In this document: in pieces, positions 15,083-34,108 of the stretch
Layout of the letters: every line of letters starts with the position of its first letter
Numbering within the stretch: the first letter of the stretch is position 1
Assembly (NCBI GenBank): GCA_024641635.1
Contig: JAHECS010000001.1
Span: forward strand, 119,845 to 183,844
DNA from: Actinomycetes bacterium
GTDB taxonomy: Bacteria; Actinomycetota; Actinomycetes; S36-B12
Direction: 5' to 3'
DNA: 64,000 nucleotides
Made by a program: the position numbers and the translations under genes
The notes under the pieces: model-generated
Database searches by the model: none
Told to the model about the DNA's origin: nothing
Seen by the model: only the letters and a program-made list of their open reading frames with translations

Positions 15083-15980
15083 CCCTGACGCCGCGTCCGG
15101 CTCGCGCAAGGACGCCGCCGTCCGAGCCCTGGCCGACGTGCCCCGTACCCCGGGCTCACCGAAGCCGGATCCCATCCTCGTCGCCGATCACGTCATCCGG
15201 CGCTTCGGTGGCCTGACCGCCGTCGACGTCGAGCACGTCGAGGTGCAGCGCGGCGCGATCACTGCGCTCATCGGGCCCAACGGCGCCGGCAAGACGACCT
15301 TCTTCAACCTCCTCACCGGCTTCGACACCCCGGACACAGGGAGTTGGCTGTTCAACGGCAAGGACATCGCGGGAGTGCCGTCCTACAAGGTGGCCCGCCT
15401 CGGCATGATCCGCACCTTCCAGCTGACCAAGGCACTGTCCAAGATGACGGTCCTGGAGAACATGCGGCTCGGTGCGACGGCGCAGAAGGGCGAGCGCCTG
15501 CTGGCCTCGATGTTCGGGTTCCTCTGGGGGGCCCAGGAGAAGGCGATCACCGAGAAGGCCGACGACCTGCTCAAGCGCTTCAACATGCATGCGAAGCGCG
15601 CTGACTTCGCGGGCGAGCTGTCGGGCGGCCAGCGCAAGCTGCTGGAGATGGCGAGAGCCCTCATGACCGACCCCGAGATGGTCATGCTCGACGAGCCCAT
15701 GGCCGGCGTGAACCCAGCCCTCACCCAGTCTCTGCTGGAACACATCAAGAACCTCCGGGAGCAGGGAATGACGGTCCTGTTCGTCGAACACGACATGGAC
15801 ATGGTCCGCGACATCAGCGACTGGGTCATCGTCATGGCCCAGGGCAAGGTCATCGCCGAGGGTCCCCCAGATGAGGTCATGCGCGACGAGGCCGTCATCG
15901 TGGCCTACCTGGGCGGCCACCATGACAAGGCGCTGACGTCGACCGGCGTGTCCTTCACCGAGGAGGGTGAGGACCAGTGA
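15072..15980 (+). CDS. livG: Branched-chain amino acid ABC transporter ATPase (LivG-like)
   Basis: GPNGAGKTT, RTFQ, LSGGQRKLLE, MLDEP. Confidence 0.93.
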   Translation: MPDSPDAASGSRKDAAVRALADVPRTPGSPKPDPILVADHVIRRFGGLTAVDVEHVEVQRGAITALIGPNGAGKTTFFNLLTGFDTPDTGSWLFNGKDIAGVPSYKVARLGMIRTFQLTKALSKMTVLENMRLGATAQKGERLLASMFGFLWGAQEKAITEKADDLLKRFNMHAKRADFAGELSGGQRKLLEMARALMTDPEMVMLDEPMAGVNPALTQSLLEHIKNLREQGMTVLFVEHDMDMVRDISDWVIVMAQGKVIAEGPPDEVMRDEAVIVAYLGGHHDKALTSTGVSFTEEGEDQ

Positions 15981-16849
15981 GCGAGCAGCTTCCCGGCGAT
16001 CTGCCCCAGTACGTCTCCCCCCATCAGCGGGAGGAGGCCCTCGACCTCGACGCGGGTCAGCGGGACGAGCCGCGCACCCTCAGCAACTCCGAGGTCCGCG
16101 ACCGCAACGCGCACATTGAAGGGGCGAAGGACGCCCTGATCGTGGCCGACGACCTCATCGCCGGGTACATCCCAGGAGTCAACATCCTCAACGGATCGGA
16201 CCTCTACGCGAAGTCCGGCGAGATGGTCGGGATCATCGGGCCGAACGGGGCAGGCAAGTCCACGCTGCTCAAGGCGATGTTCGGGCTGGTCAAGGTGCGC
16301 ACCGGTCGCGTGACGCTTGCCAACGGGGACATCACGAACGTCCGCGCCGATCAGCTCGTCAACATGGGGATCGGCTTCGTCCCGCAGACCAACAACGTGT
16401 TCCCCTCACTGACCATCCAGGAGAACCTGGAGATGGGCTGCTACCAGGCACCCAAGAAGTTCACCGAGCGGTTCGACTTCGTGTGCGACCTCTTCCCCGC
16501 CCTCGGCGAGCGGCGGGCGCAGCGCGCCGGCCAGCTCTCGGGTGGCGAGCGCCAGATGGTCGCCATGGGCAGGGCACTGATGATGGACCCGTCAGTCCTG
16601 CTGCTCGACGAGCCGTCGGCGGGCCTGTCCCCCATCCTCACCGACGAGGTGTTCGTCCGGGTCAAGGAGATCAACGCGACGGGCGTGACCGTGATCATCG
16701 TCGAGCAGAACGCGATGCGTTGCCTGCAGATCGTGGATCGCGGCTACGTGCTCGACCAGGGCCGTAACGCCTACACGGGGACTGGCCGCGCGCTCGCGAC
16801 GGACCCGAAGGTGGTCCAGCTGTACCTGGGCACCCTCGCCAAGGCCTGA
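15977..16849 (+). CDS. livF: Branched-chain amino acid ABC transporter ATPase (LivF-like)
   Basis: GPNGAGKST, LSGGERQMVA, LLDEPS, VEQN. Confidence 0.93.
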   Translation: MSEQLPGDLPQYVSPHQREEALDLDAGQRDEPRTLSNSEVRDRNAHIEGAKDALIVADDLIAGYIPGVNILNGSDLYAKSGEMVGIIGPNGAGKSTLLKAMFGLVKVRTGRVTLANGDITNVRADQLVNMGIGFVPQTNNVFPSLTIQENLEMGCYQAPKKFTERFDFVCDLFPALGERRAQRAGQLSGGERQMVAMGRALMMDPSVLLLDEPSAGLSPILTDEVFVRVKEINATGVTVIIVEQNAMRCLQIVDRGYVLDQGRNAYTGTGRALATDPKVVQLYLGTLAKA

Positions 16850-16856
16850 CCCTCCC

Positions 16857-16922
16857 CCGCCGAGAGGCAAGCTGTGGTCGTGTAACCGGCCACGTTCACG
16901 ACCATTGCCTGCCTCTCGGCGG
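16857..16922. repeat. REP-like palindrome, family copy A
   Basis: CCGCCGAGAGGCA (16857-16869) pairs with TGCCTCTCGGCGG (16910-16922); TGGTCGTG (16875-16882) pairs with CACGACCA (16897-16904). Confidence 0.88.
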
Positions 16923-16972
16923 CCTGTGGACAGGCATTTGGCACGAGACCCGAGAGTCGGCACCGTTGGCCC

Positions 16973-17980
16973 GTGCCGAACCCGCAGCGCATCCGCGCCA
17001 CCGTCGATGCCCTGGCTGCTCTCCCCCAGCCGGTCGCGCTCGGCGATCTCCCGGGGATCGGACTCACCCGGGGCCGGACCCGATCGGCCATCGCAGCGGG
17101 CGCGCTGGTGCAGGTGCGCCGCGGCTTCGTCGTTCCGACCGACCTGTGGGAGCAGGCCGACCCACGGGCGCGGCACGACCTCAGGCTGCGCGCCGCACTA
17201 CGCGCTTATCCGGGCACATGGGCCAGCCGAGAGTCGGCGGGCCGGCTGGTAGGGCTGCCCGTCTTCGACGACGGGCCGGACGATCCCCACGTGCACATCA
17301 GCAGAAGCGGGACGACGGCGCGGGAGCCGCACGTCACGGTCCACGGCAACGAGGTGCCCGACGGATTCGTGGACACCATTGCCGGGCTACGCACGACGAA
17401 CCTCGTCCGGACCGCGGTCGAACTGTCCGCCGTTCCCTCACAGCGACGCGCGATCGCGGTCATGGATGCTGCGATGCGTCTCATGATCGCCAGCCGCGAC
17501 CCGGATGACGTGCGCGCCCGAGTCCTCGACGCAGCGGCGCGCGACCACGCACGGCACGTCCTCGATGCCGCCATCGGGCCGTACAGCCGGCATCGCTGGG
17601 TCACCAGCGTCCGGCGGGCCGTCGCATCGGCGAATCCGGCGGCGGAGTCAGTGCTCGAGTCGTTCTCACGCGTGGCCATGTGCGACGCACGGCTCCCCGA
17701 GCCGGAGTGCGGCGTCCCAGTGGTCGGCGACGATGGCCGGACCTACTGGGCGGACTTCCTGTGGCGGAGGCACCGAGTGATCGGCGAAGCAGACGGAGCG
17801 GCCAAGTATCGCCAGGTCAGCCAGCTCGTCGAGGAGAAGAGGCGTGAAGAAGCGCTTCGCGGAGCCGGTTGGACCGTGGTCCGCTGGGGTTGGCCAGAGG
17901 CCGTCACGGACCCCCAGGTGATGGTGCGACGACTGCGGGCCGCCCTCGCCGCCCCGCCGACAGGCACGCCGTGGTCGTGA
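16973..17980 (+). CDS. AbiEi-like N-terminal domain plus C-terminal DUF559/Vsr-like nuclease protein
   Basis: LVQVRRG, SRESAGRLVGLP, TTNLVRTAVEL (AbiEi-like); AESVLES, ADFLW..VIGEADG..KY, EKRREEALRGAGWTVVRW (DUF559/Vsr-like). Confidence 0.85.
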   Translation: MPNPQRIRATVDALAALPQPVALGDLPGIGLTRGRTRSAIAAGALVQVRRGFVVPTDLWEQADPRARHDLRLRAALRAYPGTWASRESAGRLVGLPVFDDGPDDPHVHISRSGTTAREPHVTVHGNEVPDGFVDTIAGLRTTNLVRTAVELSAVPSQRRAIAVMDAAMRLMIASRDPDDVRARVLDAAARDHARHVLDAAIGPYSRHRWVTSVRRAVASANPAAESVLESFSRVAMCDARLPEPECGVPVVGDDGRTYWADFLWRRHRVIGEADGAAKYRQVSQLVEEKRREEALRGAGWTVVRWGWPEAVTDPQVMVRRLRAALAAPPTGTPWS

Positions 17981-18019
17981 AGACCCCCCGTTTGACGACC
18001 ACGGCGTGCCTCTCGGCGG
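17954..18019. repeat. REP-like palindrome, family copy B (overlaps the 3' end of the nuclease gene)
   Basis: 25-bp inverted repeat with one mismatch, 17954-17978 vs 17995-18019, 16-nt loop. Confidence 0.9.
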
Positions 18020-18038: not shown

Positions 18039-18074
18039 ACTGTGGGGGCCGTCCCGAAGGACGGCCCCCACAGT
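18039..18074. terminator. Intrinsic terminator-like hairpin downstream of the binding-protein gene
   Basis: Perfect 16-bp stem ACTGTGGGGGCCGTCC-CGAA-GGACGGCCCCCACAGT. Confidence 0.8.
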
Positions 18075-18087
18075 GCGTGGTGCGTGA

Positions 18088-19464
18088 CTAGCTGGCAGCG
18101 TTCGGGCCGATGCCCTGCTTCACCAGCTCCTGGATGATCTGAGCCGACTCATCGAAGCCGATGAGCACGATCGCCTCAGGTCCAGCAGCCTTGATCTTCG
18201 CCACGTCAGCGGCGAAGTCGGTGGCCTTGGGGTCGTAGACGACGTTGGCGACAACCTCGCCACCGCCCTCGGTGACCGCCTTGGTGACGTTCTCGTTCAG
18301 ACCGTCACCGTAGGAGTCCTGCAGGGACATGATGGCGACCTTGGTGAAGCCATCCTGCAGAACCATCGAGCCGACGAAGGCGCCCTGGAGCACGTCCGAC
18401 GGAGCGTTGCGCCAGTAGAGGCCCTTGTCCGGAGCGGTGGTCAGCGCAGGCGAGGTGTTCGCCGGGCTGAACATCAGGACGCCGGCATTGGTGACCTGGT
18501 CGAGAACCGACAGGGTCGAGCCCGACGAAGCCGCACCGATGAGCACGTCGATGCCCAGCGGCAGCAGGCGCTTCACGGTCTGCTTTCCGGTCTCGGTCGA
18601 CGTGTCGCCCGAGTCGCCCTCCTCGAGAACGACCTTGTCGAAGCCGGGGATGCCACCGGCCGCCTCGATGTCCTGGATAGCGAGCTTCACGCCCGCGACC
18701 TCCGGTGGCCCGAGGAAGGCAAGGTTGCCCGTCAGCGGCAGGAAGGTTCCGACCTTGAAGACGCCGTCGCCAGCGCCCTCGCCGGGCTTCCCGTCGATCG
18801 GGTTCGCGTCACCCTCGGGGACGATCTCGCCCTCCATGTAGGTGACCTCAGAGCTCAGCGTGTTGTCCGGCCCGAAGGTGTAGACGCCGATCGAGGCGCT
18901 GGTGGGGTCACCCGCGTCCCAGAAGTTGATGGCGCCGGAACGACCGTTGTAGTCGATGTCCTTGCCCTGGGCGAGGAGCTCGATGCAGCCTGCGTAGTCA
19001 TTGCAGATCTCGGTGCCGTTCGTGATCGGAACGAGCTGCTTGGCCATGTCTGGGCCCGCATCGGACTTGGCCTTGGCCGCCGCCAGAGCGCTCAGGATGA
19101 CCGCGTCGTACGACTCCGGCGCGTAGGCGAAGTCGACAAGCTCGGGATCGACCCCAAGGAGTGCATCCTTGAAGTCCTGGGTGTTCTCGGCGCCGGGGAT
19201 GGTGCCCTTCACGCCATCGAGAGTCCCCGCAGGGAGCTTCTCGCCCAGAGCATTGCCCGTGTTTCCGTCAACCAGGTAGAGCGGAGTGCCAGACGAGGCG
19301 GGTGCCTCAGAGGCGGGAGCCTCCGACGCGGGAGCCTCGGACGCCGGCGCCTCGCTGGCGGCCGCGCTCGACTCGGATGAGCTGCTGCTTCCACCGCAAG
19401 CGGCGAGAGTCAGCGAGGCAACACCGAGCACAGCGGCCGTCTTGAAGACCGTGGTGCGCTTCAT
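18088..19464 (-). CDS. ABC transporter substrate-binding lipoprotein (LivJ/LivK-like type I PBP), apparently circularly permuted
   Basis: Lipobox LAAC23, four SEAPA repeats, then YLVDGN...YAPESYDAVIL...DIDYNGRSGAINF, with the usual N-terminal KVGTFLPLTGNLAFLG only from residue 237. Confidence 0.88.
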   Translation of the reverse strand: MKRTTVFKTAAVLGVASLTLAACGGSSSSSESSAAASEAPASEAPASEAPASEAPASSGTPLYLVDGNTGNALGEKLPAGTLDGVKGTIPGAENTQDFKDALLGVDPELVDFAYAPESYDAVILSALAAAKAKSDAGPDMAKQLVPITNGTEICNDYAGCIELLAQGKDIDYNGRSGAINFWDAGDPTSASIGVYTFGPDNTLSSEVTYMEGEIVPEGDANPIDGKPGEGAGDGVFKVGTFLPLTGNLAFLGPPEVAGVKLAIQDIEAAGGIPGFDKVVLEEGDSGDTSTETGKQTVKRLLPLGIDVLIGAASSGSTLSVLDQVTNAGVLMFSPANTSPALTTAPDKGLYWRNAPSDVLQGAFVGSMVLQDGFTKVAIMSLQDSYGDGLNENVTKAVTEGGGEVVANVVYDPKATDFAADVAKIKAAGPEAIVLIGFDESAQIIQELVKQGIGPNAAS

Positions 19465-24487: not shown

Positions 24488-25585
24488 TCAGTCGCTGATC
24501 GAGGCGTACGCGGCCAGCAGGAGTGCAGGGTCCGGACCCTCCCAGATCACCGGGTGCCCGATGCCGTTGAGCACGACGAAGCGGAGGAGAGACCCACGTG
24601 CCTTCTTGTCGATGGACATGGCGCCGAGCAGGTCGTCCCAGTGGCCCGGTGCGTAGGTCGTGGGCAGGCCCAGCGCCGAGAGAACCGAGCGGTGCCGGTC
24701 GACCTCGGCCTCGGACAGCCGGCCGCCCAGCGCCGCCAGCTCGGCCACGAACATCATGCCGACGGCCACGGCCGCACCGTGGCGCCAGCGGTACCGCTCA
24801 CGCCGCTCGACGGCATGCCCGAAGGTGTGGCCGTAGTTCAGGACCTCGCGCCCGATCGACCCGTCGCCGGACGTTGCCGACGTCTCGTGGAAGTCCCTGC
24901 TCACCACGTCGGCCTTGACCTGGACGGCGCGGCGAATGAGGTCGGGAAGCAGGTCACCGGACGCATCGGTCGCGGAGAACGGGTCGCGCTCGACATCGTC
25001 GAGGATGCTGACGTCGTGGACGAAGCCCACCTTGACGACCTCCGCCATCCCGGCGAGCAGGTCGTTCCGGGGCAGGGTCTCGAGGGCGTTGATGTCGCAG
25101 AGCACGCCCCCGGGGCTCCAGAACGAGCCGACGAGGTTCTTCCCTGCAGCCGTGTTGATCCCGGTCTTGCCACCGACGGCGGCGTCGACCATCCCGAGCA
25201 GCGTGGTCGGCACCTGGATGACCCGAATCCCGCGGAGCCATGTGGCTGCCACGAAACCCGCCAGGTCGGTGGTGGCGCCACCACCCAGCCCGATGACCGA
25301 GTCGCTGCGGGTGAGTCCGGCGGTGCCGAGAACGGACCAGCAGAAGGCCGCCACCTCCGCGGTCTTCGCATCCTCCGCCTCCGGCACCTCGATGAGGGTG
25401 ACGTCGAAGCCGCCCGACCCCAGGTCATCGCGGATCGCCTCGGCCGAGGCGAGGAGGGCGCCCGGATGGATGACGGCCACCCGCTGGGAGCCGACGAGCA
25501 TCGAGGGCAGGTGGTCCAGCAGCCCTCTCCCGATGACGACCTCGTACTGCCGCTCGGCGGAGACGGCGATCACGGCGTCAGCCAT
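24488..25585 (-). CDS. aroB: 3-dehydroquinate synthase
   Basis: GGGATTDLAGF, DAAVGGKTGIN, LNYGHTFGHA. Confidence 0.97.
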   Translation of the reverse strand: MADAVIAVSAERQYEVVIGRGLLDHLPSMLVGSQRVAVIHPGALLASAEAIRDDLGSGGFDVTLIEVPEAEDAKTAEVAAFCWSVLGTAGLTRSDSVIGLGGGATTDLAGFVAATWLRGIRVIQVPTTLLGMVDAAVGGKTGINTAAGKNLVGSFWSPGGVLCDINALETLPRNDLLAGMAEVVKVGFVHDVSILDDVERDPFSATDASGDLLPDLIRRAVQVKADVVSRDFHETSATSGDGSIGREVLNYGHTFGHAVERRERYRWRHGAAVAVGMMFVAELAALGGRLSEAEVDRHRSVLSALGLPTTYAPGHWDDLLGAMSIDKKARGSLLRFVVLNGIGHPVIWEGPDPALLLAAYASISD

Positions 25586-34032: not shown

Positions 34033-34108
34033 CCGCCGAGAGGCAAGCAGTGGTCGCGCCGGGGGCCCTTGGGGGCCGGTTTCACGACCACGACGTGCCT
34101 CTCGGCGG
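34033..34108. repeat. REP-like palindrome, family copy C (solo)
   Basis: CCGCCGAGAGGCA (34033-34045) pairs with TGCCTCTCGGCGG (34096-34108); inner GTGGTCG/CGACCAC arms; same arms as copies A and B. Confidence 0.88.

Follow-up and report, generated by a model that had tools for sequence, protein, structure and literature searches.

A solo nuclease gene lying between two copies of one palindrome raises the question of what ties a gene to the repeats around it. The gene, P0001, was found in a 64,000-nt stretch of the Actinomycetes bacterium assembly GCA_024641635.1 (contig JAHECS010000001.1, positions 119,845 to 183,844 of the forward strand), which we call the window, and it encodes an AbiEi-like module joined to a Vsr/DUF559-type nuclease. 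The original prediction, made from the letters of the window, saw here a 1163-bp module resembling either repetitive extragenic palindromes (REPs) with their REP-associated tyrosine transposases (RAYTs), or insertion sequences (ISs) and miniature inverted-repeat transposable elements (MITEs). We consider it probable that the locus is one cassette of a repeat-enzyme partnership like that between REPINs (REP doublets forming hairpins) and RAYTs, in this case on an unrelated enzyme. The evidence for this reading is the architecture of the cassette, the pairing of four genes with four hairpin families, the recurrence of the arrangement in other genomes, the co-divergence of genes and hairpins, and an intact nuclease motif set.

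Pairing of nuclease genes with hairpin families

The source genome, G000, is a 3.06-Mb draft with 69.5% GC. It belongs to an uncultured Actinomycetales genus known from metagenome-assembled genomes (MAGs) only, and the window lies on its contig C57. The hairpin that flanks P0001, family F0, occurs in 29 copies in this genome, the two at P0001 and 27 more, and this genome-wide distribution is non-random relative to nuclease genes. Nearly all copies are found 0–50 bp past stop codons, often between convergent genes. About ten solo copies abut the stop codon of a gene with 0 nt between, and the sequence beside F0 copies is rich in C on the left side and in G on the right. Solo copies are near-perfect (0–2 arm mismatches) and a consensus copy folds at -46.1 kcal/mol. 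Variation between arms is mostly compensated, with 33 compensated versus 18 uncompensated positions when five decayed copies are left out. The two hairpins at P0001 are among the most decayed members of the family (7 and 5 arm mismatches). Hairpins also lie within ~100–250 nt of contig ends in G000 (C22:120, C63:77, C16:186 and C81:215) and in the relatives G010 and G007, and some contigs in relatives begin inside a hairpin arm. Since these repeats appear to break short-read assemblies, the hairpin copy numbers reported here are lower bounds.

Three paralogs of P0001 were detected in G000 by tblastn, on contigs C28, C35 and C61, with 27–31% identity and all intact. No F0 hairpin is found near any of the three. 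A different hairpin family stands around each of them, and all of these families are multi-copy: against 29 copies for P0001, we counted about 8, 3–6 and 27 for the C28, C35 and C61 paralogs, respectively. The suggestion that paralogous DUF559 genes might each be flanked by palindromes was thus borne out for every such gene in G000, each with a family of its own. An unbiased census of long hairpins in G000 returned five families with at least 3 copies, four of which pair with the four paralogous genes. As a further detail, hairpin arms provide the last codons and the stop to the C28 (C28:15152-15216) and C61 (C61:33472-33535) paralogs.

The fifth family, F2 (CGCGAGTGG...), comprises 10 near-perfect copies, and no DUF559 gene accompanies it in the G000 assembly. 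Because its arms resemble the hairpins beside C61-clade genes in sister genomes, F2 appears to be a repeat family that has survived the loss of its gene, or one whose gene is unassembled. Copies of F2 (CGCGAGTGGTCACTGCGCGCA) are located at C3:4219-4931, C62:25839-27585, C11:37038, C36:84972, C43:36572 and 70314, C66:34465 and C79:1496. The close pairs among them were considered as nuclease cassettes and rejected, as they bracket a polyprenyl glycosylphosphotransferase-like sugar transferase gene and a membrane protein. At C6:76860-77185, several F3-type arms (CGGCCGACCTTGAGGTTGCGGGC) follow one another in the same orientation with ~31-nt spacing, forming a tandem array beside one normal F3 hairpin.

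Homologs in other genomes are framed in a similar manner. Among close homologs (43–60% identity) in nine other genomes, hairpins are present on both sides in 7, on one side with a remnant arm in 1 and absent in 1, and these hairpins are genome-specific. A survey of 34 homolog loci, some of which come from closely related MAGs and are non-independent, revealed same-family hairpins on both sides in 22, on one side in 5 and on neither in 7. Hairpin density was 2.25/kb at gene boundaries versus 0.052/kb elsewhere. These loci include Nanopelagicales MAGs, one Acidobacteria MAG and two cultured strains, Nesterenkonia alba DSM 19423 and Microbacterium algihabitans. Similarly, the 11 loci of the C61 clade split 8/3/0 into the same three classes, with densities of 2.37 versus 0.030/kb. 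Overall, 30 of the 45 loci are framed on both sides and the boundary enrichment in the two surveys is 43- to 78-fold.

Could a generic intergenic REP-like palindrome simply have fallen on both sides of an unrelated gene? Same-family hairpins do bracket unrelated genes, including a methyltransferase-like gene with a TetR-like pair (C68), a small open reading frame (C55), a sugar transferase (C62) and, in G010, the nickel superoxide dismutase (Ni-SOD)/SodX genes. Bracketing alone therefore means little, and it is the paralog-specific pairing that counts. With about 29 copies in ~3000 intergenic regions, a rough calculation gives a chance of ~1e-4 that any one gene is flanked on both sides, whereas all four paralogs are doubly flanked, in addition to the framed homolog loci with their boundary enrichment. 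Coincidence is in our judgement extremely improbable and effectively refuted.

The hairpins also diverge together with the genes they frame. Arms differ by nuclease clade: genes at the livF site (site A, below) carry CCGAGAGGC, with different arms in G015, genes at sites B and C carry CGACGCGAC, and those at site D carry CGACACGAC...GGTTG. The apical stem GTCGTGAAA/TTTCACGAC of the P0001 clade is conserved as far as the Nanopelagicales MAGs, and the outer stem varies. Because arms turn over too fast between species, searching with exact arms is uninformative; such patterns were dropped as a test of co-occurrence, and a pattern of the apical motif together with direct inspection of homolog flanks was used. 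Strict matches to the apical-motif hairpin numbered 20 in G000, 5 each in G003, G009 and G010, 2 in G007 and 1 in G020, with none in the other 35 relatives and 0 in controls. Within the genus, 10 genomes have a P0001-clade gene, and 5 of them contain this hairpin; of the 15 genomes that lack such a gene, 1 contains it. The exception, G010, has F0-type hairpins in an assembly that is 83% complete and in which the livF region is wholly missing, so that its site A may be unassembled. A module-sized pair of F0-type hairpins in this genome, 1.08 kb apart (L011; G010:C36:4238-5467), was rejected as a nuclease cassette, as it brackets the Ni-SOD gene and a SodX-type protease. Co-variation of nuclease and repeat, which the original prediction had raised as a possibility, is thus observed with the exception of G015: hairpin type tracks nuclease clade.

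The P0001 cassette, its protein and its spacer

The layout of the locus was described correctly from the letters: the coordinates of the gene and of the two palindromes (Table 1) and the 23/25 match between their outer arms were all confirmed. As direct repeats the two palindromes are 78% identical. Terminal inverted repeats are therefore present at the cassette, yet each end is a full palindrome able to fold as its own hairpin, at -29.3 kcal/mol (z -8.6) upstream and -33.3 kcal/mol (z -8.5) downstream, energies equalled by 0 of 200 shuffles. The arm pattern matches 7 times in the window versus 0.16 expected. The reading frame of P0001 runs into the downstream hairpin, whose left arm provides its last ~9 codons and the TGA stop. 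An Rfam scan of the region returned spurious microRNA-hairpin matches only, far under gathering scores.

Several searches upheld the proposed AbiEi/DUF559 composition of the protein. Residues 257–320 match Pfam DUF559 (E 5e-6; 26.8 bits against a cut-off of 20.6), and the Pfam matches of P0001 are DUF559/MTES_1575 only. Residues 30–193 match PADLOC AbiEi models (E 1.6e-6), and Pfam AbiEi_4 was found in 8 of 19 family members, not in P0001 itself. NCBIfam holds no family for P0001. An AlphaFold model computed with 19 homologs reached a predicted local distance difference test value of 93.4 and a predicted template modelling (TM) score of 0.89. In Foldseek searches with this model, the N-terminal part matched the AbiEi antitoxin 6y8q (probability 1.0), the AbiEi structure of the Streptococcus agalactiae AbiE system. 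The C-terminal part matched the catalytic domain of the homing endonuclease I-Bth0305I (3r3p, TM 0.71, root-mean-square deviation 3.1) and Vsr (1vsr), and a profile search of PDB sequences recovered the DUF559 structure 3hrl. The resulting domain layout consists of an AbiEi-like winged-helix DNA-binding module at ~30–193 and a Vsr/DUF559 PD-(D/E)XK nuclease at ~245–326. Vsr, DUF559 and a group I intron homing endonuclease have been placed in one clade (PMC3424549).

Residues E229, D261, E272, D274, G275 and R291 are invariant in the 19 homologs, down to 26% identity. Because these six motif residues are invariant in all 19 sequences, the nuclease is probably active, and by analogy with related enzymes the acidic residues of the motif would have a catalytic role. 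Proteins of this type appear in databases as "hypothetical", "DUF559", "very-short-patch-repair endonuclease" or "AbiEi family antitoxin domain-containing". It had also been noted from the letters that neither a RAYT nor an AbiEii partner is in place, and this holds at the scale of the genome: the Y1/RAYT transposase profile (PF01797) has no match in the whole source genome (96.9% complete), with control genomes positive, and AbiEii (PF08843) is absent both from that genome and from the P0001 neighbourhood. No known transposase class is encoded by the cassette.

Between the upstream hairpin and the start codon lies a spacer whose length is kept at 50–53 nt (57 in locus L008) in the homolog loci of the genus, as is a YTGTGGAYAG box after the hairpin. 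A GTGGAC/GTCCAC core is common to all four cassettes of G000. We consider the box a candidate operator, promoter or processing site. These features bear on an alternative in which both hairpins would be regulatory or structural elements of P0001 itself, the upstream one an operator of AbiEi style and the downstream one a terminator or an mRNA stabiliser. The nuclease would then act elsewhere (in defence, in a toxin-like role or in repair), and host processes that do not involve the protein would have spread the solo copies. AbiEi antitoxins control their own expression through inverted repeats in the promoter, to which they bind, as in S. agalactiae AbiE, and the upstream hairpin with its adjoining box and constant spacer could by analogy be such a site. 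The overlap of the downstream hairpin with the stop codon is terminator-like, solo copies stand past the 3' ends of genes, positions that tolerate elements of this kind, and F2 and the hairpins of G010 are cases of repeats kept with no gene detected. However, direct reading of the flanks showed no T-run after F0 hairpins, and signals of a single gene leave it unexplained that the same ~60–80-nt element stands on both sides, that four paralogs have different multi-copy families and that four of five families have a resident gene. Nor was any other candidate mobiliser found, G000 having no Y1 transposase. We consider this alternative unlikely.

The cassette is embedded between genes of a LivH/M/G/F-type ATP-binding cassette (ABC) transporter and a convergent gene for a Peripla_BP_6 binding protein (SBP), in agreement with the placement between livF and the binding-protein gene given by the original prediction. 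The upstream hairpin begins 8 nt past the livF-type stop codon, and no methyltransferase is found among the immediate neighbours of P0001. Directly past the stop of the binding-protein gene lies a separate hairpin with a perfect 16-bp stem. It is nearly invariant across the genus, where the remaining livF/SBP junction cannot be aligned, and it is probably the true terminator of the binding-protein gene. Elsewhere in the window, a lone arm-like match to the F0 pattern has no partner arm and may be due to chance or a relic.

Table 1. Positions of the cassette, its neighbours and related hairpins within the window
Feature	Coordinates	Strand	Description
ABC transporter ATPase gene (livF-type)	15977-16849		part of LivH/M/G/F-type transporter
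Upstream hairpin, family F0	16857-16922	none	66 nt, degenerate, 7 arm-to-arm mismatches
Spacer, upstream hairpin to GTG start	16923-16972	+	50 nt, holds box CTGTGGACAG (16924-16933)
Nuclease gene P0001	16973-17980	+	335 aa, GTG start, TGA stop at 17978-17980
Downstream hairpin, family F0	17954-18019	none	66 nt, 5 arm-to-arm mismatches, overlaps P0001 stop codon
Hairpin past binding-protein gene	18039-18074		perfect 16-bp stem, ACTGTGGGGGCCGTCC/GGACGGCCCCCACAGT
Peripla_BP_6 binding-protein gene	18088-19464	-	convergent with P0001
Lone arm-like F0 pattern match	25537-25560	-	2 mismatches
Solo third F0 copy	34033-34108	none	76 nt, longer loop, 9 arm-to-arm mismatches

Inheritance of the cassette at four chromosomal sites

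The nuclease gene was found at four chromosomal sites within the genus: site A, the livF/SBP junction, in G000, G007, G015 and UBA10649; site B in G020 and G009; site C in G003, G017 and G022; and site D in G005 and also in G022, which has two copies. The branching of the nuclease tree agrees with these sites, with support of 90/90 for A, 100 for B, 100 for D and 100 for G017 with G022, and for this reason we regard same-site copies as vertically inherited orthologs. The nuclease evolves fast, with 47–60% identity where the adjacent ATPase retains ~91%. In G000 each clade is represented by a single gene, and no two copies are nearly identical, the paralogs sharing at most 31% identity.

As the original prediction anticipated, empty livF/binding-protein junctions exist in close relatives; they are short in G021, G001 and G011. 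In G003 the junction holds a solo hairpin of that genome's own subfamily, not of site-A type. Occupied, solo-hairpin and empty junctions thus coexist, in a comparison between species for which the tree indicates vertical descent. Intergenic DNA among the available species, the livF junctions for example, is too diverged to align. The livF/SBP junction is also a hot spot for other sequences, as further palindrome families (CGTTTGTCCCGG..., CCGCGAGTGGGCAGTTGTGGC...) and inserts of 0.9 to >1.5 kb are present in several relatives (loci L016 in G004, L025 in G002, L027 in G020, L019 in G018, L017 in G006 and L028 in G009).

This patchy distribution, with four sites in one genus and two copies in G022 (sites C and D), could be left by an autonomous mobile element, a hairpin-gene-hairpin unit that its nuclease would cause to transpose or home as a whole, with solo hairpins as MITE-like derivatives or as scars of gene deletion through recombination of the flanking pair. 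The predicted nuclease fold matches that of a bona fide homing endonuclease, and a cut solo hairpin repaired from a cassette donor by arm homology would yield the double-hairpin architecture. Yet a tree that follows site means that moves are rare and ancient, and near-identical gene copies are missing. No target-site duplications were detected: direct repeats at the boundaries are at most 3 nt for F0 and at most 5 nt for F1, no more than at random positions. Since the flanking pair is the most degenerate and the solos are near-identical to each other, the solo hairpins were not copied from the pair that flanks P0001, nor are they recent scars; the solo hairpin at site A of G003 belongs to its own subfamily. 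In a plasmid search the family proved essentially chromosomal, with 2 weak matches, both on megaplasmids. We therefore consider an autonomous element quite unlikely, somewhat more so than regulatory signals.

Overall, the history of the cassette adds up to rare ancient moves and frequent loss, not to an active transposon. Of the two kinds of system first proposed for the locus, the gene-palindrome partnership is supported by the pairing of paralogs and the framing of homologs, and the mobile 1163-bp module of IS/MITE type is not supported, in view of the site-following tree, the lack of near-identical copies and of target-site duplications, and the decay of the flanking hairpins. The original prediction had held that a syntenically fixed and vertically inherited gene would speak against it. 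The gene is in part of this kind, being vertical at each site, which counts against an autonomous transposon and not against a domesticated partner of RAYT type.

The proposed partnership and known systems

In the repeat-enzyme partnership that we favor, the winged-helix part of the protein would recognise its cognate hairpin, either as duplex palindrome or as extruded hairpin, with the apical stem as the likeliest determinant of recognition, and the nuclease would nick or cut at this place. The hairpins would then be duplicated and homogenised by host break repair or by gene conversion that uses other copies as donors, which would explain their perfectly co-varying arms. More speculatively, compensated arms would follow if a mismatch nuclease of Vsr type acted on the stems of hairpins. 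Autoregulation in the manner of AbiEi may be the role of the box that follows the upstream hairpin. At a given site, the cassette would pass on vertically, evolve fast and often be lost, sometimes leaving a solo hairpin and sometimes nothing. In its general form, the proposal is that AbiEi-like/DUF559 nucleases are the enzyme partners of REP-like hairpins in Actinomycetota and a second, independent invention of the REPIN-RAYT type, each paralog reading and nicking its own hairpin and so driving copying and arm-to-arm correction via host repair. We offer this general form as a tentative, if serious, possibility.

A number of points weigh against such a partnership. Hydrolytic PD-(D/E)XK nucleases are not known to carry out strand transfer or to insert a 66-bp element at a new site, so that the copying step rests on unspecified host repair. 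Binding of the hairpin by the protein, its cutting and the route of copying are steps that we infer. With 3–29 copies, the families are far smaller than classical REPs. Hairpins exist without a detectable gene, both as F2 in G000 and as the F0-type copies in G010. Conversely, G017 and locus L007 have an intact gene and no hairpins, and G020 apparently has the flanking pair only (one strict match genome-wide); dispersal is thus not an obligatory activity. The co-occurrence counts within the genus are small and phylogenetically non-independent. Finally, contigs of the source sediment metagenome run through the cassette without a break, at a depth like that of the flanks, and show no variants with an excision, inversion, insertion or deletion, a weak negative as it comes from assembler contigs.

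Among known systems, the closest parallel is found in the REP/REPIN-RAYT systems (REPtrons) of Proteobacteria. There, as here, a single-copy and largely vertical enzyme gene is framed by cognate palindromes, the same repeats are dispersed extragenically and mainly past the 3' ends of genes, a genome may contain several orthogonal enzyme/repeat pairs, repeat and enzyme co-diverge and target-site duplications are missing. RAYTs are given in PMC5581495 as typically one copy per genome. In contrast to REPtrons, the enzyme here is a winged-helix protein with a Vsr/DUF559 PD-(D/E)XK hydrolase and not an HUH Y1 transposase. The repeat is one hairpin of 57–83 nt with 25–31-bp arms and no GTAG head, and copies are few where REPs number hundreds. 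Action of the enzyme on its repeat is predicted here, and the host range is Actinomycetota plus one Acidobacteria MAG.

Other systems share fewer features. Elements of the IS200/IS605 group, with a TnpA Y1 transposase and subterminal hairpins, also have hairpin-forming ends around a small gene and no target duplication, but here the ends are copies of the same symmetric palindrome, and there is neither a Y1 transposase nor a set of identical elements. The type IV toxin-antitoxin system AbiE is matched by the N-terminal ~190 residues, in sequence and fold, and by a region with repeats directly before the gene, a feature also of abiE operons under autoregulation; unlike AbiE, the AbiEi-like module is fused to a nuclease and the AbiEii nucleotidyltransferase is missing from neighbourhood and genome. 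The C-terminal domain resembles Vsr and I-Bth0305I (Vsr-like, EDxHD) by the DUF559 match above cut-off, the fold matches and the profile match described above. However, P0001 adjoins ABC-transporter genes and no cytosine methyltransferase, lies outside any intron or intein, and has an AbiEi-like module and cognate flanking hairpins. A true Vsr enzyme has a Dcm-type methyltransferase as partner and nicks at T:G mismatches. Similarly to MITEs, Correia-type and orphan palindromic repeats, the hairpins are short, structured, multi-copy palindromes at gene ends that can supply stops and the tails of open reading frames; in contrast to these, each family has a candidate protein partner linked to it physically and phylogenetically, and a DDE-type transposase and target-site duplications are absent.

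In the literature that could be searched, we found no description linking DUF559 or AbiEi-domain nucleases with flanking palindromes, and the hairpin partnership of these nucleases is apparently undescribed so far. Among uncharacterised actinobacterial genes, those for DUF559 and "AbiEi-domain" proteins belong to the commonest, and no maker is known for the palindromic repeats in high-GC Gram-positive genomes. A specific protein partner for each hairpin family would, if true, explain both, and would mean that symbioses of the REPIN/RAYT kind have more than one origin and differ in chemistry. A further gain would be a natural orthogonal set of protein/hairpin recognition pairs (four in G000), with a conserved apical motif and a variable outer stem, useful for studies of DNA-hairpin recognition and possibly as tools. 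For annotation, such genes would be neither antitoxins nor Vsr repair enzymes, and the hairpins matter in their own right, as they appear to break assemblies and provide adjacent genes with stop codons. The nearest item in the literature is a table row of PMC9881135, in which "DUF559 domain-containing protein" is listed as enriched among predicted programmed-inversion targets, probably as a by-product of flanking inverted repeats.

A minor observation concerns the predicted fold outside bacteria. The full-length top matches to the P0001 model in Foldseek include unassigned proteins from the large subunit of the mitoribosome of Toxoplasma gondii (9g6k_L9, E 9.6e-4), which hints that AbiEi-like and DUF559-like folds may have been recruited into this ribosome.

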